NCBI RefSeq assembly: GCF_028641065.1
Contig: NC_073393.1
Coordinates: 36,146,001 to 36,210,000, forward strand
Reading direction: 5' to 3'
Source: Leucoraja erinacea
Lineage: Eukaryota
DNA length: 64,000 nucleotides
Below, in pieces: positions 3,940-41,828 of the stretch. Every line of letters starts with the position of its first letter. Position 1 is the first letter of the stretch. The position numbers and the translations under genes were made by a program. The notes below the pieces were generated by a model, which saw only the letters and a list, made by a program, of their open reading frames with translations, made no database searches and was not told the DNA's origin.

Positions 3940-5215
3940 GGGAAGGGGGAGAAAGAGAAGGTGGGAAGCCTCCCTGGCAGCAGAGATCTCCTGGCATTGG
4001 GACAAACCCTAGACCACTAGCTCCATGATGGACCACTAAGGGCGCCGCACGATTGGTAGCCCCGGCAACAGTCTGTTTTTTCGTCTTTTAAAATTGTTTT
4101 AGTGTGTGTTAAAAGTCTGTGTAAATGTTCTCCGGTTTGTTTTTTGTGGGAGAGGGGGAGGGTGCATGGGGAAACTGTTTTTTCCAGTCTCTTACCCTGT
4201 CGGAGATGCGATTAATCTTCGGGTCGCATCTCTGGTCGCTCTGCGGCCTACTATCGATGGAGCTGGAGGCCTCCTCAGACTGACTTGAGCCCCTCCGCAG
4301 GGCATGGACTTACATCGGGGCCGATCCCTTGCCTGGGATCGCTCCAATCGCGGCCTGCGGACTTTAAATCGAGAGCTCGCAGTCTCAGGAGAGGCCGTGT
4401 ATGTCGGGATGCTCCAACGACGCAGAGGCTCGACCAGCCCCGACACGGGGTTCGATCTTCTGATGCGGGGGAGCTGACATCCCCCCTATGCAGGTGCTGA
4501 TCGCCCCGTCGAGGAGAGCCCAAACGCCGCCGGCTACGGGAGTCAAGATCGTCCCGTCATCGGAGAGCTCGAGGCAGAGGAGAGCCCACAGGAGAGCAAA
4601 GAAGGGAAGAGTTTTTAACTTTTTTTTACGCCTTCCATCACAGTTGGGAAAGTTTAAATTAAAATGTGTTTTGTGTGTTCGGTTGCTTTTTATTTGTATG
4701 ACTGACTTGGCAAATGAAATTCCTCGTTGTTGCAAAACATACTTGGCTAATAAAGTATTATTGTGATTATGATTGTGATTGTGAGACTAGGCCGCCTGGA
4801 AGAAGCACTAGACAGCCACCGCCTCTACTGAGGCAGAGTGAGTAGCAGGGGCACGCTTGAGACACCAGTGTCTCTTCCTGCCCATGGACAATGAGGGGCT
4901 GTGCCCACACACAGAGGCAAAGATTGAGCCACCAGGATAAGTCTGAGACCGCCAGCACCTCATCTGGAGGCAAGGGTGAACTGCAGGGAGAAGTCTATGA
5001 TCACCACGCCTCCTCCTTATAGAAACCAGGACTCAGCTGCCAGGACAAGCCTGAGATTATCAGTGTCACCTTGCGTGTGCTCTGACAAAGAGAGACAGCG
5101 CCCACATCTGGTACTGGACTGTATCCGTTCTTGTCACAGTCAATAAAGATTCCATGTGCTTTCACCCTCTACAGTGGGTGTCGGGGTGGTCACTGCCGAA
5201 CCCGGCATCATCTCC
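3940..5215 (+). mobile_element. Possible solo/truncated LTR interrupted by 4021-4784
   Basis: TATA-like CTTATAGAAA ~5016, AATAAA ~5142, CA-ending U5-like segment; no partner LTR seen. Confidence 0.3.
4021..4784 (+). mobile_element. GC-rich non-coding non-autonomous retroelement with Rex1-type tail (copy A)
   Basis: Colinear with the reverse complement of 28844-29608; AATAAA plus (TGAT/GATTGT)n tail. Confidence 0.75.
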
Positions 5216-5329
5216 AATGCCAGAGACACTATGCAGCCAAATGGGATAGCATAGCATCATGGTTAGTATGGAAGTGGGCTGAAGGGCCTGTTTCTGTGCT
5301 GTGAAACTCTATAACTCTGTGAGTGCAGC

Positions 5330-5560
5330 GCTAACTAACAACTCTTACGAGGCTTGACACCACCCAGGAAAGGCAGTCTGCGTGTCTGGTGTCCCATTCA
5401 ACCACCCTAAACATTGATCCCCTTCACCATTGCTGCACAAGAGCCCTGCGGGAGTACCTTCACCAGAAGAAATGCAGCATTTTCTGAAGCAGGCTCACTC
5501 AACACCTTATCAAGAGCAATTGGGGATAGGAAATAAATGCTGGCATTAATTGACATCTTG
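5330..5560 (+). mobile_element. Old CR1-clade LINE 3' end of the type sharing its tail with Deu-domain SINEs
   Basis: RLDTTQ..A..LNIDPLHH remnant; tail CAATTGGGGATAGGAAATAAATGCTGGC; related minus copy ~47930-48130. Confidence 0.5.
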
Positions 5561-5647
5561 GAGGGAATGTGTATGTAAAACAGCCCCTTCACTTGAACGT
5601 TTGAAGACGATTTATTGAGTTCACCTTGAATAACCCCTACTGTGCAG

Positions 5648-6103
5648 TGTCTACCATTCAGTGGTGGTCAGTGCTCTGTTTTTTGCTGTGGCCTGTTGGG
5701 GGAGAAGGCGCCCGAATAGCGGACAAAAACAGACTGGATAAGCTGAACAGGAAGGTCGGCTCAGTGGTTGGGGCAGAGCAACTAACGGTCAAGCAGGTGG
5801 CAGAGGCCAGAACTCTGAAAAAACTAGGCTCAATAATGACCAACCCCACTCACCCACTCCACGCCCTGAAGGTGATCAAGTGCAGCATCTTCAGTCAGAG
5901 ACTGATTGCACCAATGTGCAAAACGGAGAGACATAGGAAGTCTTGTATACCAGCTGCTATAAGGTTTTATAATGCACAAAAATTTTAACTTATTATGTAT
6001 TGAAGATATCTGTTGAAATGTGTGGTGTTATGTCTGTCTTGAAGCTGTTGTGGCACTGTAATTTCCTGTAAAGGATTATTAAAGGTTATTCTATTCTATT
6101 CTA
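5648..6103 (+). mobile_element. Rex1/Babar LINE 3' end
   Basis: ORF 5626-5988 DKNRLDKLNRKVGSVVG...PTHPLH...CKTERHRKSCIPAAIRFYN; (ATTCT)n tail. Confidence 0.9.
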
Positions 6104-7889: not shown

Positions 7890-9100
7890 GATTCCTCTCA
7901 CCAAACTCATCACCAAGTTCCATGCCTGGAATAAAAAGGAACTGCAGATGCTGGTTTATGCCAAAGATAGACACAAAATGCTGGAGTAACTCAGTGGGTC
8001 AGGCAGCGTCTTTGGAGAAAATGGATAGGCGACGTTTTGGGTCGGGACCCTTCTTCAGGTATCCAATACCTATCAGTGACAATATCTCCTCCTCACTGAC
8101 CATTGATGCAAGTGCACCTCAAGGCTGTCTGCTTAGGCCACTGCCTTATTCTCTTTACACCCACAGCTCCAATGCCATCTACAAATTTGATGATGACACA
8201 GCAGTGGTTGGCCAAATCGCTGATTAAAGGAGAGCAATAGAGCATCTGGTTGAGTGGTGCTGAAACAACATCCACTCATTCGACATCAACAAAATCAAAG
8301 AACTAATCGTTGCCTTCTGAGGAAAAAGTCAGGAAATCACGTGCCAGCTTTCATAGGGAGGACAGTGCTGGAGAGAATTATCTGCTTCAACTTCCTGGGT
8401 TCTAACGTACACGATGACCTATCCTGGGCCCAGCATGTTGACATAGTCATGGAGAAGGCACACCAGCTGCACTTCTTTCCTAGACGTTTAAAGAGAATTG
8501 GTCTCGGAATACTCTTAAAAACATTTGCAGATGTTCTGTGGAAAGTATTCGGACTGGTTGCATCATGGCCTGGTGTGGCAATTCCAATGCACAAGATCCA
8601 AGAGGCTGCAGAGAGTGAGTGGTGCACTCAGCCTGGTCCAAAATGGGCACAGCCCTCTCCGCCATCAAAAGCATCTACAGGAGACGACATCAGGAAAGCG
8701 ACATCTATCATCAAGGAGCCCCACTATCCGAGCCATGCCCTCTCCTCACTGCCACCATAGAGCAGGAGGTACACTAACTTGAAGTCACACACCACCAGGT
8801 TTAGCAACAGCTACTTTCCCACAACTATCAAGTTCTTGACAATCCTGCGCAGCCCAAATCCTGCTTTGACAATGGAATACGGCAGATCACCTTTTACGCC
8901 TACTTGGACTTGGGATTTTTTCTAATTGGTTTGGCACTAATATCTTGTTTTCTGCACAATCTTTTTACAGTCTTGCAGAATTTTACATGTAATTTACGTA
9001 TAATTAATAGTTTGTGTGTTCGTCTGACTATATGTGTGGATGATGCTGCTGCAAGGAAGGTTTCCATTGTAAGTATACCTCACGTACTTGTGCATATAAC
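7890..9100 (+). mobile_element. Decayed Rex1/Babar LINE (RT domain to 3' UTR)
   Basis: APQGCLL.PL.YSLYTH, YKFDDDTAVVG, FLG...DDLSWAQH, SIIKEPHYPSHAL. Confidence 0.85.
7935..8058 (-). mobile_element. Penelope-like pLTR inserted in Rex1
   Basis: GGAACTGCAGATGCTGG...GGGTCGGGACCCTTCTTCAG. Confidence 0.8.
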
Positions 9101-10096
9101 AGTAGCTGGACTTTACTTGCTCCTGCCTCCTGTAAGGACACATTCCTGGTTCCCAGATGCATTTCAAAGATGAGGCCTTCCACTCTGGTGCCTGGGGAAT
9201 GTTTCGGAATCATAAAAAAGCATGGAAAAGGATATTTGGCCAAAGGTATGCATCAGTAGGCAGCCTTCTGTATCAACTCCATCATCTGTTATGGTTCATA
9301 GCCTGCTTAAGCAATACAAGTGCTCATCTAGATACTTCTTAAACCCTGTCCCTGACACAGGTTTTTAGATTGTGATTTTGTTTTTCTTTTTCCACGGATA
9401 CTGCTGGACGGGCTGATTTCTTCCGGTATTTCTGTTTTTCATTTCAGGTACCAACATCTGGAGTTTTATTTGTTTTCCTTACACACTATGTTCGCTGCTG
9501 GCATTTTATTTTTAATGCATGCATGTTATAATTTTTGTAAGTTCAAAAGCATTGACGACGGCATTAAGCTCCCAAATAATCTACAATAAAGCATACCCAG
9601 GGAGCTCCGTTGTAATAAAGTAGATGAAAAGGCCATCACCTTGACTTTGTGCAAGATCTCTCCCGATCTTCCACTTCACCAGTTTCACTGGTTTTAATAA
9701 AAACCCTTTTTATAGTTTACGTGGGAGACCTTGCCAACTTGAAGTGAAAATGAAAAACTGCAGATGCTTGAAGTCTGAAACTAAAACAGAAAAAACTGGA
9801 AACACTCAGCAGGTCAATCAGCCTAAGGAGAAATAGGATAAAGCCCCAGTTCCAAACCCCACTGTTTGAGGAAGGGTCTTGGATATGGGATATTAAATCT
9901 ATGTATCTTTCCACAGAGCACAAAATGAAGGGTCCCGACCTGAAATATCACATATCCAAGTTCTCCTATGTTATTACCCATCACGAGTTATCTACCGAGT
10001 TACTCCAGCAATATCTTTTTTTTATTCTCTTTCCACAGATTCTGAGGTTTTTTGAGCATTTTCTGATTTTAATTCCAGTGCAATTATGGCAAGTGT

Positions 10097-10412
10097 GGAA
10101 GATACATCCTCTAGATGCGCTGGGACCATCCTCAGTGATGTGACCTGGGGTCATTAGGTGTTTCGGGTCTCACAACATCAGACACCCTCGCCCAGGCAAC
10201 CCAGCCGGGGTTGATCAAGCCCCGACTTGTGTCCCAGCAGCAACCGCCCACGGATCAGCCCTCTTAAACTAAAGCCACCTAATGGCTTTATCTGCGGCTT
10301 TGCTAGTGGATTGAATGGCCCTTCTTTGCCAGCCCCGTACTGCCCAAATGGTTGAGGACTTTGCAGAGTGAGCGTCCTGCAAAGCCTCTACAGCCCACCT
10401 CTATGGACCCAA
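10097..10412 (-). mobile_element. HERO-type (restriction-like endonuclease) non-LTR retrotransposon 3' end
   Basis: Minus-strand IEVGCRGFAGRSLCKVLNHLG, then AADKAIRWL*FKRADPW, then structured 3' UTR. Confidence 0.75.
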
Positions 10413-11532: not shown

Positions 11533-11632
11533 AAAAATAAGTGCCCAACATGATAGTTTGGACAAAGATTAAGAGGAATCCAAAGATGTTTTATGTATAT
11601 TAAGGGTAAAAGAGTAACCGCGGGGAGAATAA

Positions 11633-12471
11633 AGGGCCTGTCCCACTTACGTGACCTGTACAGGCGACTGCCGGCACCTGTGATAGGTCGCCAAAATCTT
11701 CAACATGTTGAAAATTCAGCAGTGACCAGAAAGACGCTATGACTGTTTGGAGACGTCTCACGACCATAGGAGACCCCTCATGACTATACAGCCTGTATGG
11801 TCATGAGAGGTCGCCTTTGGTCGTCAGAGTCAGAGTCAGAGTCAATTTAATTGTCATTTGGACCCCTGGAGGTCCAAACGAAATGCCGTTTCTGCAGCCA
11901 TACAATTACACACAAATAGACCCCAGACACAACATAATTACATTTAACATAAACATCCATCACATAGCTGTGATGGAAGGCCAAATAAACGTATCTCTCC
12001 ACTGCACTCTCCCGCCCCCCGATGTCAGAGTCAAAGTCATAGCCCCCGGCTGGCGATGGCGATTGTCCCGCGGCCATTAAAGCCACGCCGGGTGGTGCGA
12101 GGTCGCACACCGGGTCTTGGTGTTAGAGCCCCCGGTGTGCGCTCGCAGAGTCCGCGGCCATTCCAGCCGCGCGGGGCAGTGGTGTCAGGCCCCGCTCCAG
12201 GAGCTCTTCAACCCCGCAACTCGGGCGGGAGAATTCGCCGTTGCAGGAGCCCTGAGAAGCGGTCTCCCTCCAGGGAGCCGTGGGCTCCCGGTGCCGTCGT
12301 CCACAGACCCGTCGTTGGAGCCTCCGGCTCTCCGGTAGCAGCAGCAGCAGCGCTCCAGCAGCAGCAGATCTCCAAAGAGTTGTAGCGTCTTTCCGTTCGC
12401 CGCTGAATTTTCAACATGTTCAATGGGTGCTGGCAGTCGCATGTAAAACTCGCGTAAGTGGGACAGGCCCT
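11633..12471. mobile_element. Non-autonomous PIF/Harbinger element
   Basis: TIR AGGGCCTGTCCCACTTAC / GTAAGTGGGACAGGCCCT; TAA TSD at 11630-11632 and 12472-12474; long internal inverted repeat. Confidence 0.9.
11826..12369 (-). mobile_element. GC-rich Rex1-tailed non-autonomous retroelement (copy B) nested in Harbinger
   Basis: Minus-strand tail CATTTCGTTTGGACCTCCAGGGGTCCAAATGACAATTAAA(TGACTC)n; shares the CCATCACAG hairpin with other copies. Confidence 0.7.
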
Positions 12472-13440
12472 TAAGGCCCCTCAAAGACTAAATTATACAT
12501 TGAAGCGTGGAGTACCAGGAGATGGGTGAGGCTTTCAATTAATATTCATCCTCGATTTTACTACAGAAAAAGACATGACGATAAAGGAACTTGGCAAAGT
12601 TAATGGATATCTTGGCGATAGTCCGCATTACAGCGGAGGAGGTGCTGGATGTCTTAAAACATATGAAGGTGGATAAATCTCTGGAGCCTGATCAAGTACA
12701 AACAAGAACTCGGGAAACTGAGATATATACATCATCATTAGCCACAGATGATGTGCCAAAGGTCTGGAGGGTGGCTGGCTCTGTGAGTTTACTTAAGAAG
12801 GGCTACAAGGAGAAAACCTGGAAATGTTAGACAAGTAAGCCTGACATCTGTGGTAGGTGCAATACTGGAAGGGGATCTGAGAGATAAGATATACATACAT
12901 TTTGAAATAAAATAGTTGTTAGGGATAATCAGCATGGTTTTGTACATGGGAAATTGTGACTCATGAATTTAATTTCAGATGATTGAAGAAATAACCAGGA
13001 AGGTTAATAAAGGCAGAATGGTAGATGTAGTCCATATGTGCTTCAGCAAGGCCTTTAATAAGCTCTACATGGGAGGTTACTCTGGAAGGTTAACCATGGG
13101 AAGCACGGGATCCAGGATTACATATTTGGTTTGATGGTAGGAACCGTATGTGTGATGGTGGAAGGTTGTTTTCCCGACTGGACTACTGGTGTTCCTCAGG
13201 GGCACATTGTCGTTTGTCAACAATCTGCATCAACAATTTGGGTGATAATGTACTAGAAATGATTAATACGTTTGTAGATAACACCACAATAGATAGCTAT
13301 CAAGAATTAGGCAGGATCTTGATCAGCTTGGTAAGTGGATCAAGGAGTGGGAAATGTCATTTAATTTAGATACATGGGAGATGTTGCCGTTTGAGAGGTC
13401 AATCCAGGGTAGGGCTTTTGCAGTGAACAGTAGGCCCCTG

Positions 13441-13741: not shown

Positions 13742-14152
13742 CATAGAAACATAGAAAATAGGTGCAGGAGTAGGCCATTCGGCCCTTCGAGCCTGCACCG
13801 CCATTCAATATAATCATGGCTGATCATCCAACTCAGTATCCCATACCTGCCTTCTCTCCATACCCCCTGATCCCTTTAGCCACAAGGGCCACATCTAACT
13901 CCCTCTTAAATATAGCCAATGAACTGGCCTCAACTACCTTCTGTGGCAGAGAATTCCACAGATTCACCACTCTCTGTGTAAAAAATGATTTTCTCATCTC
14001 GGTCCTAAAAGACTTCCCTCTTATCCTTAAACTGTGACCCCTTGTTCTGGACTTCCCCAACATCGGGAATAATCCTCCTGCATCTAGCCTGTCCAACCCC
14101 TTAAGAATTTTGTAAGTTTCTATAAGATCTCCCCCCTCAATTTTCTAAATTC
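13742..14152 (-). mobile_element. Young CR1/HER1 LINE 3' end
   Basis: RTRGHSLRIRG...FFTQRVVNLWNSLP; (CATAGAAA)n tail. Confidence 0.9.
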
Positions 14153-14249: not shown

Positions 14250-15285
14250 TTTAGGTTTATTATTGTCACATGTATTAAGTTACAGTGAAAATCTTTGTTT
14301 TGCATTCTATCCAACCAAATCAGATAATACAATGCATAAATACAATCAAACCAAACTCAAGAACAATCGGTAGAGCAAAGGGAAGGATACAGAGAGCAGA
14401 ATAGATTTCTCAAAGTTGTAGCAAACCCGTTCCAGAAACACAGTCCAATGTCCACAACGTGGTAGAGATGAATCAAACAATACCCCAGCTTATGGAAGTA
14501 CCGTACAGAAGCCTGAGGGGAAGAAGCTGTTCTTGAGTCTGGTGTTGTGCATTTTCAAACCTAGATCTTCTGCCCAGTGGGAACAGGGAGAAGAAGGAAT
14601 GACTTTCTTATTTGATTAATCTTTAAAAGGTGTTGGTGTGCCTTGGCTGTCACTTCAACGTATTTGGTCCATGATAGATCAATGGTAATATTTACGCCTA
14701 GGAACATGAAGTTCTCAGCCATTCGGCACCATTAATGCTGCTAACTCGCTCTGATATCTTGCTGACATTGAGGGAGAGGTTATTGTCCTGACACCACATC
14801 GCTATGTTCTCTCTCTCATTGTACTCTGTCTCATCTGTGTTCTTGGTCAGTCTCACCACAGTGGTGTCATCTGCAAACTAGCAGATGGAGTTAAAGCCAA
14901 ATTTGGCCTCACACTCCTGAGTGCATGAGGAGTATTGTGGGGAACTGAGAATTCCGGGCATCATTGCGGGGTGTTGAGAATGATTGTGTTTCTGTGGGTG
15001 GGAAAGTCGAGAATCCAATGGCAAGAGGGGGGTGCTGATTCCCAGGTCCAACAGTTCAGAAATTAACTTGGATGGAATTATGGTGTTGAAGGTGGAGCTA
15101 TAGTGGATATGTCCTTGTTGTCTAGGTGTTGCAGAGATGGGTTTAGAGACAGGGAGATGGAGTACATCTGGACCTGTTGTGACAGTCGACAAGCTGTAGT
15201 GGATCAAGGCTGTCTGGGTGGCTTCACCAGTCTCTCAAAGCATTTCATGTTGGTGAATGTCAAAGCCACTGGACAGTAATCATTA
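14250..15285 (-). mobile_element. Decayed, internally deleted Rex1/Babar LINE
   Basis: Minus YSSTFNTIIPSKLISELLDLGISTPL, C*FADDTTVV; tail TGACAATAATAAACCTAAACC. Confidence 0.8.
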
Positions 15286-15449
15286 AAAGGCTTTTAACTA
15301 CACAATAATGCAATGCTATGATTTCCCTATCAGAATTTTCTTTGTTGATTAAACTTGTTTTATTTTATTACATTTATTGGCCAATGATTTATATGGATTC
15401 AATGATGCTACTGTTTATCATCATGTGAATCGGATTCCATGACTTTTTA

Positions 15450-17266: not shown

Positions 17267-17730
17267 ACAAATTTACATATGAACTTTTACTGTCTGGTCC
17301 TTCACATCAGGTGATCGATGGGCGGCATGGACTTGGTGGGCCGAAGGGCCTGCTTCCATGCTGTATCTTTTAGTCACTCAATTCAGTCAATCAGCAAGTC
17401 CAATAAATCAGCCAGCCACATCCTCTTCTTTACTTTCATTAACAACAAAATAAATACACACAGAATCCTTTCCCAAAATCCAAACAAACTGTTTATTGTG
17501 GCTGATTTACTTGAGGAAACCTTAAGCTTCCTTAATACGCGCATGTAAATAAAGTAAAAATGAAGGCAAATAAACGTAGCTTTTTTAGGATAAAAAAATT
17601 AATACCAATAAAGAACAAATAAATAAAACATAAATGATGAAAGTAAAAAAGGATAATTAGATTAACAAACAAGCAAATCATCAATTCAATAAGAACGAGC
17701 AAAGATAAAATGGTATAATAACTACTATGT
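17267..17730 (+). repeat. Direct repeat copy 1 (~464 bp) left of L1
   Basis: About 98% identical by eye to 18968-19433. Confidence 0.95.
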
Positions 17731-18967
17731 ACTAATAACCCTTTATTTAAACCATCTCTTATTGATAAGACATATAACCAATGGGAAAGTCTCGGAATTA
17801 GAAGGATCGGGGATATGTATGAAATGGGAAACCTACTATCATTCCAACATCTACAATTAAAATTTAAATTGAAAAACAACCAATATTTTAAATATCTTCA
17901 CATTTGCGACTTCGTGAAAAAATATATACAAGGATATCAAAAAGTAACTCCTGACTTATTGGAAGAAGCAATGAATATTGAAGCTGACTCACAAAAATTA
18001 ATATCATATTTATATAATAGTATTCTAAATATAGACCTACCATCGACAGAGGTACTTAGAGAAGAGTGGGAACGGGAACTAATGATAAAAATTACGAAGG
18101 TTAAATGGGAAAAATACCTGATATATATTCACAAATGTTCAATTAATGTAAGACATAATCTAATTCAATTTAAAATTGTACATAGATTATATTATTCAAA
18201 AATAAGATTGAACAAATTGTATCCAAATATATCCGCCATTTGTGATAAATGTCTAGCCCGAAAGGCAACTATAACACACTCCTTAGTTTCCTGCATAAAA
18301 CTTTATAGATTTTGGAATGATATTTTTGAAATATTTACAAAATGATTCAAGACAAGAATGGAACCTAATACTGAAATGATTATATTTGGTGTAATGGAAG
18401 ATGGGAATAAATTGAACACATCTCAAAATCTATTCCTAAACTATGGTTTAATAATAGCAAAAAAATGAATACTTAAATTTTGGAAGGGTACGTCAATACC
18501 AATGCTTAAAATGTGGATTGCAAGTATGTTGGACACCGCTCATCTTGAGGAAATGCGATTCCTCCTAATGGATAAATCAGACCAATTCATAACGAGTTGG
18601 TCTCCATTCGTCGTTTTTTTGGAATCATATGGTGCAACACAATTGTAAAAAATAACTGTTTCAGGACTGGACGAGGGTTGGTCAAGATTATAAATAATGA
18701 TCTCCTTTTCTTTTTTATTTTATTTTCTTTTCTCTATTTTCTCTCTCAACTTTCTTCATTTACTCGTTTTCTTTCTTCACACACTATATATTTCACATCT
18801 TTCTATCCTTTACTATCTAACTTCTTTTTCTTATTCTAATCTTTTTTCAATGTAACAAAAAAAAAAAAAAGTTGTACATAAAATGTATTATGAAAATATA
18901 TATTAGGCACTTTGGTGCCATATGACTGTACTTACTTCTAATAAAATAAAATATTAAAAAAACAAAA
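17731..18967 (+). mobile_element. 5'-truncated fish-type L1 (ORF2 C-terminus, 3' UTR, poly-A)
   Basis: LIQFKIVHRLYYS...CDKC...THSLVSC...FWNDIF zinc knuckle; AATAAA and A-rich tail. Confidence 0.9.
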
Positions 18968-19433
18968 ACAAATTTACATATGAACTTTTACTGTCTGGTC
19001 CTTCACATCAGGTGATCGATGGGCGGCATGGACTTGGTGGGCCAAAGGGCCTGCTTCCATGCTGTATCTTTTAGTCACTCAATTCAGTCCATCAGCAAGT
19101 CCAATAAATCAGCCAGCCAAATCCTCTTCTTTCCTTTCATTAACAACAAAATAAATACACACAGAATCCTTTCCCAAAATCCGAACAAACTGTTTATTGT
19201 GGCTGATATACTTGAGGAAACCTTAAGCTTCCTTAATACGCGCATGTAAATAAAGTAAAAATGAAGGCAAATAAACGTAGCTTTTTGTAGGATAAAAAAA
19301 TTAATACCAATAAAGAACAAATAAATAAAACATAAATGATGAAAGTAAAAAAAGGATAATTAGATTAACAAACAAGCAAATCATCAATTCAATAAGAACG
19401 AGCAAAGATAAAATGGTATAATAACTACTATGT
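18968..19433 (+). repeat. Direct repeat copy 2 (~466 bp) right of L1
   Basis: Starts immediately after the L1 A-tail; matches 17267-17730. Confidence 0.95.
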
Positions 19434-19504: not shown

Positions 19505-21510
19505 GATAAAATAGGCCAAACTCAGCATGGTTTTGGGAAATAGAAATCTTGCCTGCCGAACTTGTTGGAATTCTTTGAGGAAATAAATAGCAGGATAGAC
19601 AAAGGAGAGTCAGTGGATGTTCTTTGCCTGGGTTTTCAGAAGGCTTTTGATAAGGTGCCGTATGCGAGGGTACAAAAGAAGATGAGAGCCCACGGTATCA
19701 AAGGGAAGATACTAGCATGGGCTGCAGGTTGGCTGGATGGCAGGTCAAAAAGTGGCAATAAAGGGGACTTTCACTGGTTGGCGGCCTGTGACTAGCAGTA
19801 TTCTGCAGGAGTCGGTGCTGAGACCACTATTCTTCACGTTGTGTATCAATGATTTGGATGAGGGGATTGAAGGCTTTGTGGCCAGGTTTGCAAGTAATAT
19901 GAAGATAGGTGGAGGGACAGGGCAGTGTGGAGAAAGCAGGGACTCTGCGGAATGACATGGACAGGTTGGGTGAATGGGCAAAGAAATGGCAGATGGAATA
20001 CAGTGTAGCATAGTAGGGAATCATGCGTTTTGGTATAAGGAATAAAGGCATATACTATTTTCTAAATGGGGAGAGAAATCAGAAATCAGAGGTGCAAAGG
20101 GATTTATGAGTGGTGGTACAGTATTCCCAAAAAGTTAATTTGTAAGTTGAATCAGCAGTAAGGAAGGCAAAGGCATTGCTAGCATTTCAAGAGGACTAGA
20201 ATATAATGTATTGCTGAAGCTTTATAAAACACTGGTCACACCGCATTTGGAGTAATGTGAATAGTTTTGAGCCCACATCTGAGAAAGGATATGATGACGT
20301 TAGTGGGTCCAGAGGAGGTTTACGAGAATGATCCTGGGGATGATTGGGTTAACATGTGATGAGCGTTTGGTGGCACTAAGCCTGTACACGCTGGAGTTTA
20401 GAAGGATCAGGGGACACCTCAATGAAACTTACTGATTAGTGAACAGCCTGGATAGAGTGGATGTGGAGAGGATGTTTCCACTAGTGGGAGAGTCTAGGAC
20501 CAGAAGCCACACCCACAGAATATAAAAGAACATACCTTTAGAAAGGAGATGAGGAGAAATCTATTTAATGAGCGGATGGTGGCATCAGCAATGGCTGCAT
20601 TGCCAACAGTCTGTCTGTCCCTTCCTTATCTGTTGTTGCTTTAGAATGTGTTAAATGTATGTTTTTCGTGTTGTTCAGCTTGTTTTATGTGGGGTGGGGG
20701 TTGGGGGAAACTTTTAAAAATCTCTTACCTCGACGGAGATGCAATTTTTTTCCGTATCGTATCTCTGTCCGCACTGCAGCCTAACATCGAGGAGCTGGCG
20801 GCCTCTGCTGGAGACAGACATTGGGAGCTCAAACCCGCGGGAAGTCTGCAGGACTTTAACATTGCGGAGCTGGCGATCCCTTTGGCGGGGATCAACCTTT
20901 GAGCTCCATCCACGGGAGCCTGCAGACTTTAACATCATGGAGCTCGCGGTCTCTGGTTAGAGACCAGCTTCGGGAGCTCCAAGCCGCAAAGCTTCGCCAC
21001 GCTGACGCGGGGGCTTTGATCGCCCCAATGCGGGGGCTTCGAAAGCCGGCTGCGGGAGCTTTGATTGCCCTGAGGGATGGTTCGACTACCCCGACCACGG
21101 GAGAAAAATTTGGGAAGAAGATTAGACTTTATTGCCTCCCCCCATCACAGTGAGGAATGTGGGGAATACGCTGTGGTGGATGTTTGCGTTAACGTTTATG
21201 TACTGTAATTGTGTGACTTGTTCTTTTTTTTAAGTATGGCTGTGTATGGTAATACGAATATGACTGTACCTTAATTAGTACACGTGACAATAAAATACCT
21301 TTGAAACCTTTGAATCTATGGAATGCATTGCCATATACAATTGTGGAGACCATCAAGGGGTATTTTTAAGGCACAGATTAGCAGATTCTTGATTAGTAAG
21401 GGTGTCAGGCGTTATGGGGAGAAGGCAGAAGAATGGAGTTGAGAAGGAAAGATAGATTAGCCACGATTGAATGGTTGAGTAGACTTGATGGGCCAAATGT
21501 CCTAATTCTA
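19505..21510 (+). mobile_element. CR1/HER1 LINE (RT domain to 3' end), frameshifted
   Basis: LEFFEE...VDV...FQKAFDKVP, QESVL.PL.F..CINDLDEG, FAS.MKIG, WQMEY. Confidence 0.9.
20582..21310 (+). mobile_element. GC-rich Rex1-tailed non-autonomous retroelement (copy C) nested in CR1
   Basis: Splits CR1 GGTG|AATCT; GGCTGC..GCCAACAGTCTG head; GTACACGTGACAATAAA tail. Confidence 0.75.
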
Positions 21511-24504: not shown

Positions 24505-24985
24505 CAGCTTCAGATGCTAGCTTACCAAAAAAAAACAATGCATTTCGTTGTCTCTGTACTGTACACTGACAATGACAATTAAAATTGAATCTGAATCTGA
24601 AAACCACACAAAGTGCTGGAGTAACTCAGCGGTCAGGCAGCATTTTTGGAGAACATGAATAGGCAGTGTTTCAGGTCGAGATCTTTCTTCAGACTGATTA
24701 GAGAAAGCTGGAAGAGAGATGGGGACTGATCAAATGATAGATGGATACAGGTGGGAATGAAGGATTTGAAGTGTGACATAAGGATTTCCCGGTTTCCAAA
24801 CACGTTTACTCCCGTTTCCATTCCCACACTGACCTTTCTGTCCTGGGCCTCCTCCATTGCCAGAGTGAGGCCGAACACAAATTGAAGGAACAGCACCTCA
24901 TATTAAGCTTGGGCACCTTACAGCCCAGCGGTATGAGTATTGATTTCTTTAACTTCAAGTAACCCTTGCATTCCCTCTCTCTGGT
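24505..24985. mobile_element. Penelope-like element: inverted pLTR plus endonuclease C-terminus, with a Rex1-type tail inserted at ~24538-24601
   Basis: + strand SHSHTDLSVLGLLHCQSEAEHKLKEQHLI..LGTLQPSGM; minus pLTR at 24605-24697. Confidence 0.75.
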
Positions 24986-25488: not shown

Positions 25489-25717
25489 TTTGTTAAATAC
25501 ACTGGAGCATTTCAACAGCCAGTTGCTGCTGGTGTCTCACTTACTAACTAGTACCTGAGAGAGCGAGAGAGAGAGAGAGAGAGTTGTTGTGTAGTACCGT
25601 AATACCATGTAAAGGGTGGTATGCATACTTGTGTGGTGAAGGTTATAAATGGCATGAATTAATAAGGATTAATCTACAGGGCTGTCGAACCATTAGCAAT
25701 CGGGGCCATTAAAGTTA

Positions 25718-26162
25718 CCGCAGCGGACGATCTGAAGCCCATGCGTCGGGGAGATCAAAACTCCCTCGTAGGGATGGTTGAAACTCTCCGCAGCTTGGGG
25801 CTCCCAAATCAGTCTCTAACCAGGGACCGCGGACTCCATGATGTCCAAGTCCACAGGCCCCCACAGTCGATCTCCGGCAAAGGGATCGCAAGCTCCACTG
25901 TGGTAAGTCCGCGCTGTGCCCGTGGTTGAAGCACTGGGTCGATCTCCAGAAAAGGCCGCACCACTCCACAATGTTTACAGAGAAGCAGTGAGAACGGAGA
26001 TACGATACGGGAAAAAAAATCGCACCTCCATCGAGGTAAGAGATTGAATAAAGTTTCCAACATAAAACAAACCAAGGAACACTAAAACACACTCTTTAAC
26101 ACGTACTTACAACAACAAATACAGCAGAAAGGACAGACAGACTGTGGCGAGGCAGCCATATG
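25718..26162 (-). mobile_element. GC-rich non-autonomous retroelement (copy D), 3' end missing
   Basis: Reverse complement homologous to copy C. Confidence 0.7.
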
Positions 26163-26722: not shown

Positions 26723-27654
26723 TGGATGAATAATCTAAGTGGGTAAGACCTTGGCAGATGCAATATAATGTGGGGACAATGTGGTTATTTATCTTGGAAA
26801 AGAAGGAGAAAAGTGGAGCATTTTGCAGCGGGGTATATTAGGCTGTACTGACTCTAAAGGGGATTGAGGTGTCCTTGAACGAGTCACTGAAAGCTAATAT
26901 GCAGGTTCAGCAAATGATTAGGAAGGCAAATAGCTTTTTTTTTTTTTAAAGTACTTTCTTAACCTGCCCTGCCACTTTCAATAAACTCTGCATGTATAAC
27001 CCCGGGACTTTCTTTTGGTGCATCCTTTGGTGCTACGTGTGAATGCTCAAAGAACAAAAACCCAACAGGAAAAATGATTCATCCATGGCTGACAAGAGAA
27101 ATTAAAGATAGTGTGAAATCCACGGAACAGGCTTATAAAGTTGCCAGCAACAACAGTTGGCCTGAGGATTGGGAGCGTTTTAGAACTCATCAAAGGAGAA
27201 CATAGAAAATGTTTTTTTTTAATTTTTTTTTTTAAAGGCAAAATAGAATATGTGAGATGACAGCTGTGAAACATAAAATCGGACTGCAAGCTTTTATAGG
27301 TGCGCGGGGGCAAGTGTGAGCTTACAGACAGAGGCAAGACAGTTTATAATGAGGAAAAAGGAAATGGCATCGGAAGTACACAAGCGCATCTTGTCTGTCT
27401 GCATTGAGGAACATACACAAAACCTGCCAGGCAGCAAACAAAGAAGCTAGTGAGAGTAAGGAAATGAAGGAACACACACTGGTGGCTGCTATATTAATCA
27501 TCCTCCACAGTACTATTTGGGAATTGTTCCTGTGGATTGGTTGGCTGCAAACACATTCCTACGATTTAAGAAATAAAGAAGGAAGAAAATAACAAACTAT
27601 TAGCCTGATGTCAATAGTAGGAAATTTGCCGGAATTTTTATAACAGAGGATGCA

Positions 27655-28570
27655 ACAATACAATACAATACAATCAGTTTTATTCGTCACTTGCACAGAA
27701 AGTGCAAGTGAAATGAAATTGCCAGCAGCGGTACAATGAAAGAGAACACACAAAAACACAATAAAAATTGAACACAAACATCCACAACAGCATTCATCAC
27801 TGTGGTGGAAGGCACAAAATTTGGCCGGTCCTCCTCCATTTTCCCCCGTGGTCGGGACCTCAACCCTCCGCAGTCGCCGCTGCGGGCGTCCAGATGAATG
27901 AAAGTCAAGGTAAGTCCTGAAACGGTGCCTCCCCCACCAGAGACCACGGCTTCAGGTTGGTGTAGGCCGCAGGCCGGCGGTCAAAGATTTAAAGTTCCCG
28001 CCCCGCCGCAGCCAGAAGAACCCAGACCGCAGGGCCGGCGGTCGAAGCTCCCCTCCAGGGGTCCCCGGCGAGGGACCCCGCTCCTGATGGTAAGTCCCCG
28101 CCGTGCCCGCGGTAGAAGTTGGCTGCTGGCCGGCGGTGGGAGCTTCTTCTTCTTCTCCCGGGTCCCCAACGAGGGATCCCAGGCTGCGGACGCCACGCCA
28201 GCTGGAGCTCTGCAGACCGCGGCTTCAGGCTGCCACGGGCCAGCGAAACGGAGCGCTGCCCTCCGGCGAGCCCTGGGGAGGGCCGCCAGCTCCACGCCGA
28301 GAGTCTACGCTGCGCCCGTGGCGCGTCTCCGGGAAAGGCCACACAGATCCTCGATGTTAGGCCACGGGGGCGGCGACATGGTAAAAGTCGCCTCTCCGTG
28401 GAGGAGGCGACCGAAGCGGTTTCCCCCTTACCCCCCCCCCCCCCCCCACCCCCACACAAGAACACACAGAGAAACAATAAAAACATATATTTAAACACAC
28501 TAAAAATATAAGACAAGTAGAAAACCCAGACACGCTGCTGGCAGGGCTGCCCGCTTGCAACACCCCCACT
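27655..28570 (-). mobile_element. GC-rich Rex1-tailed non-autonomous retroelement (copy E)
   Basis: (CAATA)n tail on the + strand; colinear with 40749-41624. Confidence 0.75.
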
Positions 28571-28708
28571 GACCTAATAGAATACCTTGAAAATAATAGT
28601 AGGATTGAGCAAGACATAGTGAAAGGAAAATCATATTTGACCAACATACAAGGTTTTTTTTAACTTAAAGCTAATAAACGACATTGGATAAGATCCCACG
28701 CAGAAAGG

Positions 28709-29864
28709 TCATAGAGTCATAGTCATGGAATGATACAGTGTAGAAACAGGCCCTTCGGCCCAACTTGCCCACACTGCCCAACACGCCCACACTGCCCAAC
28801 ACGTCCCAGCTAGAGTCCCACCTGCCTGCGCTTGGTTCATATCATAATCACTATCACTCAATCAATCAATAATACTTTATTAGCCAAGTATGTTTTGCAA
28901 CAAACGAGGAATTTCATTTGCCAAGTCAGTCATACAAATAAAAAGCAACAAAACACACAAAATTCATTTTAACATAAACATCCACCACAGTTTCTCTTCC
29001 ACATTCCTCACTGCGATGGAAGACGAAAAAAAAAGTTCAAATCTCTTCCCTTCGTTGCTCTCGTGAGGTCGGGGGCCTCGAGCGCTCCGTTGACAGGATG
29101 ATCTTGACTCCCGTAGCCGGCAGCGTTTGGGCCCTCCGCATTGGGGCGATCAGCTCCTGCATTGGGGGGGATGTCAGTTCCCTGCGCCGGATGATCGAAC
29201 CCCACATCGATACTGGTCGAGCTTCTGCGTCGTTGGAGATCCCGACTATCTTCTCACCGAGACTGCGAGCTCCCAATGTAAAGTCCACAGGCCACGGTGG
29301 GGGCACTCCCAGGCAAGGGATCGACTATGATGTTAAGTCCACGCCCTGTGGTGGGGCTCAAAGTCAGTCCGAGGAGGCCTCCAACTCCATCGATGGTAGA
29401 CCGCAGAGCGACCGGAGATGCGATCTGGAAGATAATCGCATCTCCGGCAAGGTAAGAATCTGAAAAAGAGTTTCCCCCTCCCCCACACAAAACAAACCGG
29501 AGAACATTTACACAGACTTTTAACACACACTAAAACTATTTATAAAGACAAAAAAAAACAGACAGACTGTTGGCGGGGCTGCCAATCGTTCAGTGCCCCT
29601 GGTGGACTAACCTGTCCTATCCATGTGCCTGTCCAACTGTTTCTAAAATGTTGGGTTAGTCCCAGCCTCAACCACCTCCTCTGGCTGCTTGTTCCATACA
29701 CACACCACCCTTTGTGTGAAAAAGTTACCCCTCAGATTCCTATTAAATCTTTTCTCCTTCATCTTGAACCTATGTCCTCTGGTTCTCGATTCCCCTACTC
29801 TGAGCAAGAAACTGGGCATCTACCCTATCTATTCCTCTAATGATTTTATACACCTCTATAAGAT
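28709..29864 (-). mobile_element. CR1/HER1 3' end split by copy F
   Basis: CATAGAGT tail; CR1 sequence resumes at 29609. Confidence 0.8.
28844..29608 (-). mobile_element. GC-rich Rex1-tailed non-autonomous retroelement (copy F)
   Basis: Colinear with copy A; (AATC)n tail on the + strand. Confidence 0.75.
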
Positions 29865-33556: not shown

Positions 33557-34058
33557 GTTTAGTTTAGTTTAGAGACACAGCGCGGAAACAGGACCTTCAA
33601 CCCACTGAGTCCGTACCAACCAGCAAACCCCGCACACTAATGGGCCTGTCCCACTTAGACAATTTCTTTGGGCGACTACAGGCGTCTGCCGTAAAATTTT
33701 CAACATGTTGAAATTTTTTCGCCAACAGTGGCGACAATTTTTGCTGTCATAGGTTGTCGCCAGGTGTCGCCAGGTGTCATAGGTGAATTCCATTGAAACT
33801 AGTCCCTGGCTGTCACCTACAGAGTTGCCTAAGTGAGACAGGCCCATAACACTTTCCTACACACACTGGGGACAATTTACATTTACACCAAATTTACATT
33901 AACCTATGTCTTGGAGTGTGGGAGGAGAACGAAGATCTCGGAGAAAGCCCACTCTGGTCACGGGGAGAACGTGCAAATTCCATCCAGACAAGCACCCGCA
34001 GTCAGGATGGAACCCGGGTCTCTGGCGCTGTAAGGCAGTAGCCCTACCACTATGTCAC
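33557..34058 (-). mobile_element. HE1-type SINE split by a Harbinger MITE
   Basis: SINE reads through CGCACACTAA|CACT once the insert is removed. Confidence 0.85.
33641..33846. mobile_element. Harbinger MITE (206 bp)
   Basis: TIR TGGGCCTGTCCCACTTAG / CTAAGTGAGACAGGCCCA; TAA TSD. Confidence 0.9.
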
Positions 34059-34378: not shown

Positions 34379-34386
34379 ATTTAAAA

Positions 34387-34496
34387 CTAGACTAAGTGGG
34401 ACCCGTTGGGTCCCAGCATCACACAGAAGGGCTGGTCACTTTTCACTTCCCACTTGTGGTCAAGGGGGGATGGGAGAGGGGGGGAGGGGGGGGGGG

Positions 34497-34527
<31 letters not shown>

Positions 34528-34829
34528 AGGGGGGGGGGGGGGGAGGGGGAGGGGGGGGGAGAGAGGGGGGAGAGAGGAGGGGGGAGAGGGGGGGGAGGGG
34601 GGGGGGGGGGGGGAGGGAGAGAGGGGGGGGAGGGGAGAGGGGGGAGAGAGAGGGGGGGAGAGAGAGAGGGGGGGAGGAGGGGGAGGGAGAGAGGGGGGGG
34701 GAGGGGAGAGGGGGGGAGAGGGGGGGGGGAGGGGGGGGGAGAGGGGGGGAGAGAGAGGGGGAGAGAGAGGGGGAGAGAGGGGGAGAGAGGAGAGAGAGGG
34801 GGAGGGGAGGGAGAGGGGGGGAGAGAGGG

Positions 34830-34860
<31 letters not shown>

Positions 34861-35514
34861 GAGGGGGGAGAGAGAGGGGGAGAGAGAGAGAGGGGTGAGA
34901 GAGGGGGGGGTGAGAGGTGGGGGTGAGGGGGGAGAGGAGAGGCAGAGAGGTGGGGAGCAGGGAGGGGGAGGGTGGAGGGTCAAGGGAAGGGGGTAGGGGT
35001 ACGTGGAGGGGAGGGGGGGGGGGTTTAGGGGAGGGACAGTGGGGGAGGGGTTGGATGGGAGGAGGGAGAAAAAGAGGGGGGGATAGAGAGATAGAGAGAG
35101 AGAGAGAGGTGCCTTTTTACTTCAACCCAAACCCCCCCAAACAACCATTTGCATGCAGTGCTTTTTTCCTCAAACTAACCATATTTTCCTTTTCAAACCA
35201 CTTTATGGGTACTCACAGCTGTGGAGACATTCGTTCAGCGTCATTCAGCTCTGATTGAGGCACACCACTTCCTGGTTTTATAGTCCCTCCCCCTCCCTTC
35301 AGCAGGGGCAGCTGAGAAAACGGGGAATTTTGTAAAAACATTAATATCTCTGTCATTTTTCATCGATGGGAAAAATCCTCGGCACACATGCGGCGGAGGG
35401 GGGCTTTGAGCGAGGTGGCCAAAAATGACGGCCGTAGGTGGCGGCGTTCTCTCGGAAATCGCAGCACAGAAGGCCAAAAGCGGTCAAGAACAGAGATTTA
35501 GTTATATAGATAGA
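34387..35514 (-). mobile_element. Non-autonomous Helitron
   Basis: Minus strand begins A|TCTATCTATATAACTAAA and ends GGGACCC-AAC-GGGTCCC hairpin, ACTTAGT, CTAG|T; no TSD. Confidence 0.75.
34466..35107 (+). repeat. G/GA-rich low-complexity tract inside the Helitron
   Basis: About 640 bp almost entirely G and A. Confidence 0.9.
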
Positions 35515-37050: not shown

Positions 37051-37201
37051 TATGCGTTTAGTTTGGTTTAGTTTAGGGATGAAGTACGGAAACTGGCCCT
37101 TCAGCCCACCGAGTCTGCACTGACCAGCGATCCCCACACAGTCACTCTACTTATACACACTAGGGACAATTTATACATTTTTCAAAATCCCAAACTAATT
37201 A

Positions 37202-39011: not shown

Positions 39012-39120
39012 TTAACCTACAAACCTGTACATCTTTGGAGTGTGAGAAGAAACCAAAGATCTCAGAGAAAATCCATGCAGGTAACAGGGAGAACGTACAA
39101 ACAGGAGCAAATGAATAATA

Positions 39121-39259
39121 TTACTATAATATCAAGGAGGGGGTTAGTGTGTTTGTGGGGGCATCAGTGTGTGTGTGTGTGTCCCACACACACACACATA
39201 GTCCCCCCGGCAATCGCACGTTGAGGGGACGGGACCCGACGGGGCCCCCTCTGGTCTAG
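39121..39259 (+). mobile_element. Miniature Helitron-like element
   Basis: Ends GGGACCC-GAC-GGGGCCC hairpin, CTCTGGT, CTAG|T, like the 34387 terminus; 5' end approximate. Confidence 0.55.
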
Positions 39260-39284
39260 TACATACATATATATTACAGAATGG

Positions 39285-39466
39285 NNNNNNNNNNNNNNNN
39301 NNNNNNNNNNNNNNNNNNNNNNNNNNNNNNNNNNNNNNNNNNNNNNNNNNNNNNNNNNNNNNNNNNNNNNNNNNNNNNNNNNNNNNNNNNNNNNNNNNNN
39401 NNNNNNNNNNNNNNNNNNNNNNNNNNNNNNNNNNNNNNNNNNNNNNNNNNNNNNNNNNNNNNNNNN
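39285..39466. other. Assembly gap
   Basis: Run of N. Confidence 1.
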
Positions 39467-40335
39467 AAGGGCCTGGTTTCCATGCTGTAACTTTCAATGA
39501 AACATTATTCCAGGCCCATTTGAGGCAGAGGCAATGGCAACCCCAGCATAAGACAAAGAGACATTCTGAGGTCCAAATGGAATTTGTAGCCATTTTCTGT
39601 CAGAGTTACTCTAAAACTGCAGTCGGAATGTGCTGGAGCAGTCAAGTAATTTCATATCCTTGCATGTGTCCCTGAACAATACGGGAATAAAACCAAGTGA
39701 CTTCTAAGTGGGGGTACAAATGTTTCGCTAAATCATACATGATGTACTGTGGCAATAGCATTTAATTACAAAAAGATAAGAACATTGGCTTTGTTGATGA
39801 TGCTTGTACGGTATGGTTATGATGTCATTATAGTTCATTCCCCATTGCTATGCCAACCATGTAATAGTCTATGCCTGTTGCTAAGCTACTAACATAATAA
39901 AATCTTGCTTTTTTAACTTGCATAAAGGAGAAATGGCTGCAGTGAATGTAAATGGGAACTACGAATTTCTTTCTTTCTAGTTTGATTGTCAAAAACATTA
40001 CTTTTATATTAAAAATAGAAGTTTTAACTTGTTTCTTAGAATTAAACTAATTATTAACAAATATCCTCCACAGATTAATCTCCCAAATGAAATAATAGAC
40101 AAACAGGTCTCATCCAAGTGAACTGAGTTCATATTCAAATGTTTGAATAGACAAATTTCAAAGCAATTTTTTCTTCTGGTAGATCTTAATTTTTTTGTTA
40201 ATATTACTATTAAGGATCATAATGGCCAAATTCTACATGTAGTTGTCAGGAGCTTGGAGACTCCTTTGCAGATGTGGAATAACTGAAATTGTCAAGGTCC
40301 TTTCCAGTGATCTTCCAGCCACACACTGTCTAGTG

Positions 40336-41828
40336 CGTGTGCGGACGTGGCGCCGAGGGACGAGAGGCCGAAGCAAAGAAGTTGAAGCCAAAGAACCGAA
40401 TGGACCGAGGCTGAAACGCTAAGTACGAAGACGAAACGCCTACTAACCGAAAGGGTGGGATGTTTAAATGCAAACTTACCGAATGGCCGCTCTGTCGAAA
40501 CGCCACCTACCCGAAAGGAGGCGTCGCTTACAAGACAATGGACCGACTGCCGCTCAACAGAAAATTCCAATAACGGACATGACGTTGCCGGGGGGCGGGA
40601 TTTGTCAGCGATTGGTCCAGACCCCCACGTCCATCACATCACTGTGAAGGGATGAACATTGTCCCAAACCTCCGCTCCACCCGAGCCCATGGAGGGTGGC
40701 CGTGGGAGAGTGGGGGCTGTCCCGAGGGATGCGCACCTTCGGCCGCTTACAATACAATACAATACAATACGGTTTATTTGTCACATTGCACAAAAAGTGC
40801 AAATGAAATGATATGTCAGCAGCGATACAATGATAAAGAACACGCACAAAAACACAATAAAATTTTAACATAAACATCCACCACAGCATTCATCACTGTG
40901 GTGGAAGGCACACAATTTGGCCAGTCCTCCTCCATTTTCCCCCGTGGTCTGGACCTCAACCCTCCAGATGGTAAGGACAAGGTACAAGTCCAGGTAAGTT
41001 CAGAGTCGGCTCCTCCCCACCGGAGACCGCAGCTTTTAGTTGGTATAGGCCGGCGGCCGAAGATTTAAAGTTCCCTCCACGTCGCAGCCATAAGCACCGC
41101 AGTCTGCAGGGCCGGCGGTCGAAGCTCCCCTCCAGGGGTGATGTTAAGTCCATACCGGATCCGCGGTAGAAGTTGGCCGCGGGCCGGCGGTGGAAGCTTC
41201 TTCTTCCCCCCGGGTCCCCCACGAGGGATCCCGGGCTGTAGACGCCGCGCCAGCTGGAGCTGTGCAGACCGCGGCTTCAGGCTACCGTCTGCTGCAGGCC
41301 AACGGAACGGAGCGCTCCCCTCCAGCGAGCCCCAGCTCCGTGCTGACAGTCCACGCTGCACCCGCCGCCGGAGCCCCGAGCGCGTCTCCGGGAAAGGCCG
41401 CGCCGATCCTCGCTGTTAGGCCACGGGGGAGGCGACCTGGAAAAAGTCGCCTCTCCTTGGAGGAGGCGACTGAAACGGTTTCCCCCTCACCCCCCCCACA
41501 CCACCCCCCACACAAAACACACGAAGGAACATTAAAAACATACTTCAAAACATACCAAAAAAATAAAAAAAGTTGAAAAAACTAACGCGCTGCTGACAGG
41601 GCTGCCGCCAGTGCAGCGCCCCCACCGCTTTCAACGGTGCTTGGGATCAGATTGCCCAGTGTGGGAAAAGGACCCTCACGCTCCCATCTCCCCCTTCTCT
41701 CTCCCCTCTGCTCTCTCTTCCTCCTTCCTCTTTCGGTTTATTGGCGGTTTGGCCTCGTTTCCATTCAGTTATTTCGCTTTGACTTCTTTGCTTCGGCTTC
41801 TCGTCCATCAGCGCCACATCCGGGCACC
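40336..41828. mobile_element. Non-autonomous DNA transposon with long imperfect TIRs and 8-bp TSD
   Basis: GTCTAGTG at 40328-40335 and 41829-41836; ~90-bp inverted termini containing GCCGAAGCAAAGAAGT. Confidence 0.75.
40749..41624 (-). mobile_element. GC-rich Rex1-tailed non-autonomous retroelement (copy G)
   Basis: (CAATA)n tail; CCGCTT duplicated at 40743-40748 and 41625-41630; colinear with copy E. Confidence 0.8.

Follow-up and report, generated by a model that had tools for sequence, protein, structure and literature searches.

Abundant and apparently undescribed protein-free retroposons with Rex1-type tails in a 64-kb window of the little skate genome

The window considered here, a stretch of 64,000 nucleotides (nt) from the little skate Leucoraja erinacea (RefSeq assembly GCF_028641065.1, contig NC_073393.1, positions 36,146,001 to 36,210,000 of the forward strand), contains seven homologous repeats with Rex1-type tails, termed copies A to G (Table 1). 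A preliminary description, made from the letters without database searches, had proposed seven copies in about four subfamilies with a common layout. All seven (7/7) were found in place, and their mutual homology was borne out by blastn and by leave-subfamily-out nhmmer. In four such tests, each omitting exactly one subfamily from training, every held-out copy was recovered (E-values of 1e-67 to 4e-9), copy B at 1.2e-21 by profiles trained without its own subfamily, and no further locus appeared in the 64-kb window at E<0.01. The subfamilies are A/F, C/D, E/G and B, with pairwise blastn identities over nearly the whole length of 80% between A and F, 78% between E and G and 70% between C and D. 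The copies occupy 5,077 nt, or 7.9% of the window, and the five full-length ones measure 729-916 nt. Their common order, seen in alignment A1, is GC-rich head, T-rich tract, G-run, 5' hairpin (hp1), GC-rich body, 3' hairpin (hp3), terminal stem-loop, AATAAA-like signal and microsatellite. The same 5' end is kept in 6/7 copies, which come from three subfamilies. Copy B lacks the head and copy D the tail, as had been described, but D also lacks hp3 and reaches to about 25680 rather than to 25718.

Table 1. Positions of the seven copies, of the parts of copy F and of decayed Rex1-type reverse transcriptase (RT) fragments in the window
Feature	Position	Strand	Description
Copy A	4021..4784	+	Subfamily A/F, full length; homology with F from 4033 on
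Copy B	11826..12369	-	Own subfamily, 5'-truncated, (TGACTC)n tail
Copy C	20582..21310	+	Subfamily C/D, full length, CCTTTGAA-type tail
Copy D	25680..26162	-	Subfamily C/D, head and 5' body only; without 3' hairpin and tail
Copy E	27655..28570	-	Subfamily E/G, full length, (ATTGT)n tail
Copy F	28844..29608	-	Subfamily A/F, full length
Copy G	40749..41624	-	Subfamily E/G, full length
Head (F)	29567..29608	-	GC-rich start of about 45 nt, GGCAGCC..GCCAACAG core, resembles Rex1/L2 5' starts
T-rich tract and G-run (F)	29475..29566	-	T-rich tract placed as in Rex1 5' ends
5' hairpin hp1 (F)	29412..29445	-	12-bp stem
GC-/CpG-rich body (F)	29021..29411	-	Degenerate internal repeats: GGACTT, GGAGCT and CTTACC modules
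3' hairpin hp3 (F)	28981..29020	-	10-bp stem, variable loop
Tail (F)	28844..28913	-	Terminal stem-loop, AATAAA at 28876-28881, microsatellite
Decayed Rex1-type RT fragment	2528..2626	+	
Decayed Rex1-type RT fragment	5677..6103	+	
Decayed Rex1-type RT fragment	8066..9110	+	
Decayed Rex1-type RT fragment	14250..15287	-	
Decayed Rex1-type RT fragment	48266..48640	+	
Decayed Rex1-type RT fragment	49135..49720	+	
Decayed Rex1-type RT fragment	61278..61773	+	

The copies are richer in GC than the window (0.49-0.59 vs 0.43), and their observed/expected CpG ratio is higher (0.80-0.91 vs 0.44). No conserved open reading frame (ORF) had been seen from the letters, and the searches agree: eight ORFs taken from six copies gave no Pfam match, and tblastn with 10 Rex1-type proteins matched none of the seven copies, so that no remnant of an APE/RT ORF was detected. 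A protein search with an ORF of copy G was also blank, which is weak evidence. Read depth shows the family to be very abundant in both organisms whose reads were compared, with a summed contig depth over copies E and F of 4e3-1.1e6 vs 8-35 on the single-copy flank, depth not being equal to copy number. The exact head pattern had 0 matches in the metagenome contigs.

Judged by its letters, the tail is a Rex1-type 3' end derived from a long interspersed nuclear element (LINE). The reference set consisted of the best 80 of 106 confirmed metagenome loci, fetched by alignment of proteins carrying RVT_1 and PF09004 domains; their APE-proximal motif and 5' ends agree, by eye, with published Rex1 consensuses, and the same alignment yielded no confirmed loci in viral contigs. 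Thirty loci with an RT C-terminus gave 18 tails and, after removal of near-duplicates, a profile of 15 teleost 3' ends. Its top five matches in the window were copy E, a lone tail at 24538, and copies G, C and B (E 0.04-1.7). Four of the six family tails thus stand in the top five, a number reached by 0/40 block-shuffled training sets, for which the maximum was two. The lone Rex1-type tail (24538-24600, plus strand, about 60 nt) is very like the tails of loci L001 and L004, and the next repeat adjoins it directly. The window also holds seven decayed Rex1-type RT fragments (Table 1), the relatives of which carry RVT_1 and PF09004. Several of these keep their own 3' untranslated region (UTR) and tail, one of which, near 14250, is similar to the tail of copy C. 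Among protein relatives of a LINE fragment in the window, the best came from the sawfish Pristis pectinata. A protein search with a decayed Rex1 fragment gave no match, a blank of little weight, and none of the longer relatives of protein P0001 was named as chondrichthyan among the matches listed. Batoids have Rex1 coverage among the highest in vertebrates (PMC13343379).

Head and body are common to the four subfamilies, which differ from one another in tail and microsatellite unit. One head and body with four different tails therefore suggests tail exchange. The reading preferred here, by a modest degree of belief, is that the copies are non-autonomous, protein-free retroposons which depend on Rex1/Babar LINEs and combine a LINE-type start, a foreign structured body and an exchangeable Rex1 tail. 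Rex1 enzymes are likely to be borrowed because the element ends like Rex1 and probably starts like Rex1. Dependence on Rex1/Babar had been proposed from the outset; the non-coding retroposon and the Rex1/Babar-type tail have held, while trans-mobilisation is still inferred.

The body of about 500 nt matched nothing in the Rex1 sequences compared and appears foreign to them. When the 80 Rex1 loci were searched with profiles of head, hp1, body and hp3, no match had E<0.01, and element profiles found nothing in the window's own Rex1 fragments. Published consensuses were compared over the first 400 nt of each, by eye or with exact short words (PMC13343379, supplement). Body words common to the copies were absent or merely scattered in this part of about 1,000 CR1-group consensuses, including 38 batoid Rex1 (19 little-skate, 14 stingray, 5 sawfish). 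These blanks, together with the four different tails on one body, argue against the strongest rival explanation, namely a plain bipartite deletion derivative, every part of which, from head to tail, would be an untranslated or repeat-expanded end of a skate Rex1. This origin is considered unlikely. In its favour, some batoid consensuses (LeuEri_Rex1-15, PriPec_Rex1-1) carry a 5' region that is GC-rich and expanded by repeats, where modules such as ACTTACC, GGACTTTAA or GGAGCTG resemble those in the body (noticed by eye and post hoc), and the consensus comparison was confined to the first 400 nt, short of the 3' UTRs.

Within the body, a GC-rich hairpin array had been described. The hairpins hp1 and hp3 are indeed conserved, but the term array was an overstatement, folding at z<-2 being modestly above background (13-14/74 windows of the copies vs 6/52 background windows). 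Pairing in hp1 is 91.7% of 72 cells in six copies, with two compensatory pairs between E/G and the others and covariation above 500/500 shuffles; this corresponds to two events over three subfamilies, and the relatedness of the copies inflates the test. In hp3, pairing is 95.9% in five copies and covariation was not above the shuffles (302 of 500). The bodies of A, C, D, E, F and G contain CTTACC, the reverse complement of the splice-donor core, which occurs nine times in sense and once in antisense in the copies (1.77 per kb vs 0.20 elsewhere, roughly a ninefold enrichment in the sense direction, the copies not being independent). Antisense intronic copies could supply splice sites through this motif. 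CTTACC is also the 5' motif of U1 small nuclear RNA (snRNA); a suspected origin of the module from U1 was without Rfam support in the four copies scanned. LeuEri_Rex1-15, PriPec_Rex1-1 and locus L080 contain the longer ACTTACC in their 5' regions.

The head is probably of Rex1-type origin, a view that is based on several partial resemblances. In full-length Rex1 elements, the first 40 nt or so form a GC stretch of GGCG type, and a T-rich tract comes next; this pattern is seen both in the teleost loci and in most of those batoid consensuses whose start is intact. The top ten matches of a Rex1 5' profile built from nine hand-anchored teleost starts included the heads of A, F, G and E. Ten head 9-mers gave 33 matches in the approximately 1,000 CR1-group consensuses, eight of them in the first 40 nt or so (7 Rex1, 1 L2). 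This signal came from the first half of the head, the proportions at the 5' end being 4/4 for ATGGCTGCC, 2/3 for GGCGCCGCA, 1/1 for GGCGCTGCA and 1/4 for ATGGCTGCA; the head 9-mer of copy D had all four matches within about the first 30 nt (3 Rex1, 1 L2) and that of copy A two of three. Two of the eight 5' matches had been seen before the words were chosen, and ATGGCTGCC had come up earlier, in locus L005. By eye, PolSen_Rex1-12 agrees with copy A in 24/33 columns and with the core of E in 16/18, and MasArm_Rex1-1 with copy D in 12/12. Seemingly significant pairwise alignments of the head were mostly matches of the T-tract, which failed a scan control, and were rejected.

Alternatively, the elements could be chimeras of a Rex1 tail with a head from outside Rex1, either the 5' end of an L2 element or GC-rich sequence as in two families of bird SINEs (short interspersed nuclear elements). 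The AAGATGGCGCC..GC pattern also opens LeuEri_L2-1, LeuEri_L2-3 and ThaAma_L2-6, in two of which CTGTCT comes after it, the controls for Rex1 homology of the head are weak, and GC-rich heads of unknown origin have been described in birds (PMC7245038). However, seven of the eight 9-mer matches at 5' ends fall to Rex1, and the longest matches found by eye are likewise with Rex1 (PolSen_Rex1-12, MasArm_Rex1-1 and HypSab_Rex1-4). A chimera of this kind is rated somewhat below the plain deletion derivative. The preliminary description had proposed comparison of both ends with Rex1 UTRs; the tail is supported by profile and controls, and the head resembles Rex1 5' starts but with weak controls. It had also named, as an outcome that would speak against it, a consensus that was simply the 5' UTR plus 3' UTR of a LINE. 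As the head is probably Rex1-type, this is in part what was found, but the body of about 500 nt matched none of the Rex1 sequences compared.

Some observations on Rex1 starts stand apart from the question of origin. In 5/8 teleost Rex1 starts a strongly hydrophobic stretch like a signal peptide stands at the beginning of the ORF, ahead of the APE domain (Kyte-Doolittle 15-mer maximum 2.1-2.5), as assessed over the first 150 nt or so of the ORFs of loci L002-L005, L019, L021 and L037. In three loci this stretch is encoded by the T-rich tract. A literature search for 'Rex1 signal peptide' returned no relevant paper. At L051:1598-1750, hardly anything separates the 5' start of a teleost Rex1 copy from its RT-coding sequence, a natural internal deletion.

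Evidence on transcription comes from reads aligned to 27560-29700 at 80% likeness, with about 5% of run X24 and about 1% of run X22 sampled. Copies E and F were covered throughout by both RNA runs. The unique flanks were near zero, and the reads therefore stem from other copies. Among the single-cell reads of X22, three groups with loose ends (499, 623 and 558 reads) carry poly(A) on the element strand, beginning in each group about 17 nt past the AATAAA at 28876-28881, and an A-run is found in 0/6 genomic tails. This spacing after AATAAA is that of cleavage and polyadenylation by the RNA polymerase II (Pol II) machinery, and the polyadenylated 3' end is of Pol II type; the family tail serves as a poly(A) site in RNA. 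The GU-rich microsatellite may act as the downstream polyadenylation element. Plus-strand pile-ups were also present beside the T-tract (2019 vs 50 and 1195 vs 29 reads). The likeliest reading of these is oligo-dT priming at internal sites of antisense copies, because reads at the CR1 3' end run sense. The earlier proposal of Pol II transcription gains from the placing of the poly(A) and from the absence of a Pol III head, and an internal Pol II promoter would be a further step.

Such a promoter may also be dispensed with, if transcription enters source copies from host promoters beside them and the head does no more than show where the cap-proximal end lies in a small number of master loci. 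Mapping of RNA starts had been suggested as a check, and no pile-up of starts was found in reads over 27560-29700; moreover, most RNA reads continue into unlike sequence (0.83-0.85), and the antisense pile-ups at the T-tract look like internal priming in pre-mRNA. The libraries, however, were not designed for mapping starts, and a 5' end shared by 6/7 copies of three subfamilies is disfavoured under read-through from varied loci, so this promoterless origin is judged improbable. A Pol III SINE of atypical kind, its promoter decayed or external, would suit the SINE-like size, the abundance and the LINE tail, but is very improbable given poly(A) after AATAAA, a B box in 0/7 copies, runs of T4-T9 within the first 81 nt of 6/6 headed copies and no match to transfer RNA (tRNA), 5S, 7SL or snRNA by ARAGORN or Rfam. 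The missing Pol III head and the early T-runs had both been noted from the letters and are upheld. ARAGORN found 0 tRNAs and Rfam 0 gathering hits in the window. The comparison with Rfam that had been proposed also covered copies F, G, C and B at E<=10, where weak, unrelated, sub-threshold matches only were returned and none of the matches was to a ribozyme family.

Insertion sites provide evidence on mechanism and age. Copy C splits a CR1-like fragment with a 2-nt overlap at the junction, copy E splits a CR1-like RT fragment without duplication, and copy F splits a CR1-like 3' fragment from which 6 nt of the target were lost, a deletion that 265 reads of unoccupied paralogous sites confirm. 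Copy B lies inside an inverted-repeat element with TAA/TTA flanks, and copy G inside another (arms 40342-40422 and 41741-41822) with a 6-bp duplication, CCGCTT. The interruptions were correctly described at the outset; the host fragments of F, C and E are presumed to be CR1, and the element around B is taken to be Harbinger-like. Copy A lies within a stretch resembling a long terminal repeat (LTR), with a possible 5-bp duplication, ACTAG. The duplication at G, the deletion at F, the overlap at C and the truncation of B are shown to be junctions of retrotransposition type.

The copies had been called relatively young. They do postdate their hosts but are only modestly younger and not recent, because substitution divergence between siblings (12.5% for A-F, 14.6% for E-G and 21% for C-D) is similar to that between host CR1 pieces and their own siblings (14-17%), and because insertion E is common to two organisms: a contig from organism B crosses the head junction of E with 10 differing letters in 297. 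CR1-like 3' fragments at 13742-14132, 44032-44422 and 53296-53681 are 93-97% alike and younger than the family. The host of copy A (3940-4020 and 4785-5200) is solo-LTR-like, with TATA-like and AATAAA motifs and no sibling in the window. The inverted-repeat family with GGGCCTGTCCCACTTA ends and TAA/TTA flanks is represented at 11632-11753 / 12369-12472 and near 33693, 38371 and 38964, and the element hosting copy B has an internal 73-nt palindrome at 11756-11828.

Under the preferred dependence on Rex1/Babar LINEs, the family would be a three-part unit, with a Rex1-type 5' start (GC-rich head and T-rich tract), a GC-rich body of about 500 nt with two conserved hairpins, and a subfamily-specific Rex1 tail. 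The unit would be transcribed by Pol II, probably from the LINE-derived head, as the absent Pol III head and the observed poly(A) addition suggest. Rex1 endonuclease/RT protein would then bind the tail stem-loop in trans, in keeping with the similarity of the tails and with LINE-SINE pairs generally. Target-primed reverse transcription, presumably starting from the microsatellite, would give the observed products, namely full or 5'-truncated copies with short or no duplications. Subfamilies may persist by swapping tails with different Rex1 lineages, consistent with one head and body and four tails.

Several results weigh against this reading. The A/F tails (2/6) were missed by the Rex1 tail profile, and the partner LINE itself was not seen. 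At the other end, the 5' profile finds 4/6 heads only at E 0.3-19, a result equalled by 2/40 composition-preserving shuffles, and in pairwise scans of 20,220 windows the ten best for each of the six heads included no Rex1 5' window. Six further head 9-mers had 0/21 matches at 5' ends and a seventh, ATGGCTGCA, 1/4, and some L2 elements have the same 5' start. With regard to RNA, poly(A) reads could derive from host transcripts ending in old copies, the start pile-up expected of an internal promoter was lacking in libraries not designed for start mapping, and, because microsatellites rather than poly(A) close the genomic copies, the transposition intermediate may be something other than the polyadenylated RNA.

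A wider claim is advanced more tentatively than the dependence on Rex1. Under this claim the copies would represent an undescribed, very abundant batoid superfamily of Pol II SINE-like retroposons, the first ORF-less derivatives in the Rex1 clade, with one promoter head and structured body and with tails swapped among Rex1 partners; it would scatter working polyadenylation signals and antisense splice-donor motifs. If true, ORF-less non-autonomous LINE derivatives would extend to the CR1 group, for which PMC5786205 reports none. The family would then also serve as a deletion map, made by nature, of the cis-elements required by Rex1 (start and tail stem-loop), in a clade whose horizontal transfer is frequent and whose mechanism has been little studied. 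With 7.9% of the window, it could make up a considerable part of the repeat DNA of skates, probably as yet unclassified, and it is likely to stand in automatic repeat libraries under 'Unknown' or 'Rex-Babar'. The interest is a specialist one for transposon biology, and the chemistry is that of ordinary LINE retrotransposition.

Other features were noticed in the window. At 17267-19267, a 300-nt direct repeat (98%) flanks an ORF of 207 amino acids with a weak zf-RVT match (E 0.002), and a 96% inverted copy of part of this repeat, at 2632-2870, interrupts the Rex1 fragment at 2632. A G/GA-rich low-complexity tract of 500 nt lies at 34463-34972. The assembly has N gaps at 39285-39466 and 56008-56166.

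The family is real, abundant and apparently undescribed, probably a Rex1-dependent ORF-less retroposon with a LINE-type start and a structured body of unmatched origin. No paper describing it was listed in the literature searches, with subscription papers and Repbase Reports outside coverage, and no such family appears in the accessible parts of PMC7245038, PMC5381603 and bioRxiv 10.64898/2026.10.27.761883. The treatment of Rex1 in rays in PMC13343379 contains neither spelling of 'non-autonomous'. By the definition of SINEBase (PMC3531059) the family lies outside SINEs: the five full-length copies exceed its limit of <700 bp and have neither a Pol III promoter nor a small-RNA head, although they are non-coding with a 3' end in common with a partner LINE.

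The SINEs SlmI, HpaI and OS-SINE1 of salmonids and SINE2-5_NV are likewise non-coding parasites that use a Rex1-type 3' end, but these RSg-1/Rex1-tailed elements have tRNA or 5S heads (Pol III), whereas the skate family has neither and is longer (PMC3747384). HE1, SacSINE1 and the CmiSINEs share the same broad host group and a modular structure, with tail exchange described for the CmiSINEs; they differ, on comparison of descriptions, in their tRNA heads, V/Deu/CORE domains and HER1/L2 partners and in having no Rex1 tail (PMC3747384, PMC5499810). Avian SINEs with GC-rich heads of unknown origin are similar in lacking a small-RNA head, in GC-richness and in a LINE-derived tail, but their partners are RTE elements, with bipartite RTE sequence, while the skate head looks LINE-derived (PMC7245038). 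RSg-1, mentioned above, belongs to the Rex1 clade. Autonomous Rex1/Babar LINEs share with the skate family the 5' start pattern and T-rich tract and the 3' stem-loop, AATAAA and microsatellite, but measure about 3 kb with an APE/RT ORF, compared with 0.7-0.9 kb without such an ORF (PMC13343379).

The head being probably LINE-derived, the elements belong beside the bipartite non-autonomous LINEs rather than in a new class of SINEs. ORF-less members of this group were reported only for RTE, Ingi, Vingi and R2 by Kojima in 2018, in a paper from which the word 'Rex1' is absent (PMC5786205). RIME, NARTc, Bov-A, RTESINE1/2 and the Vingi-1_EE derivatives are alike in having no ORF, a LINE 3' end and probably a LINE 5' end, and bipartite LINEs also share presumed Pol II transcription and trans-mobilisation (PMC5786205). 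In contrast to the bipartite LINEs described there, the skate family has Rex1 as its parent clade, a structured body of about 500 nt without LINE match, and varied tails.

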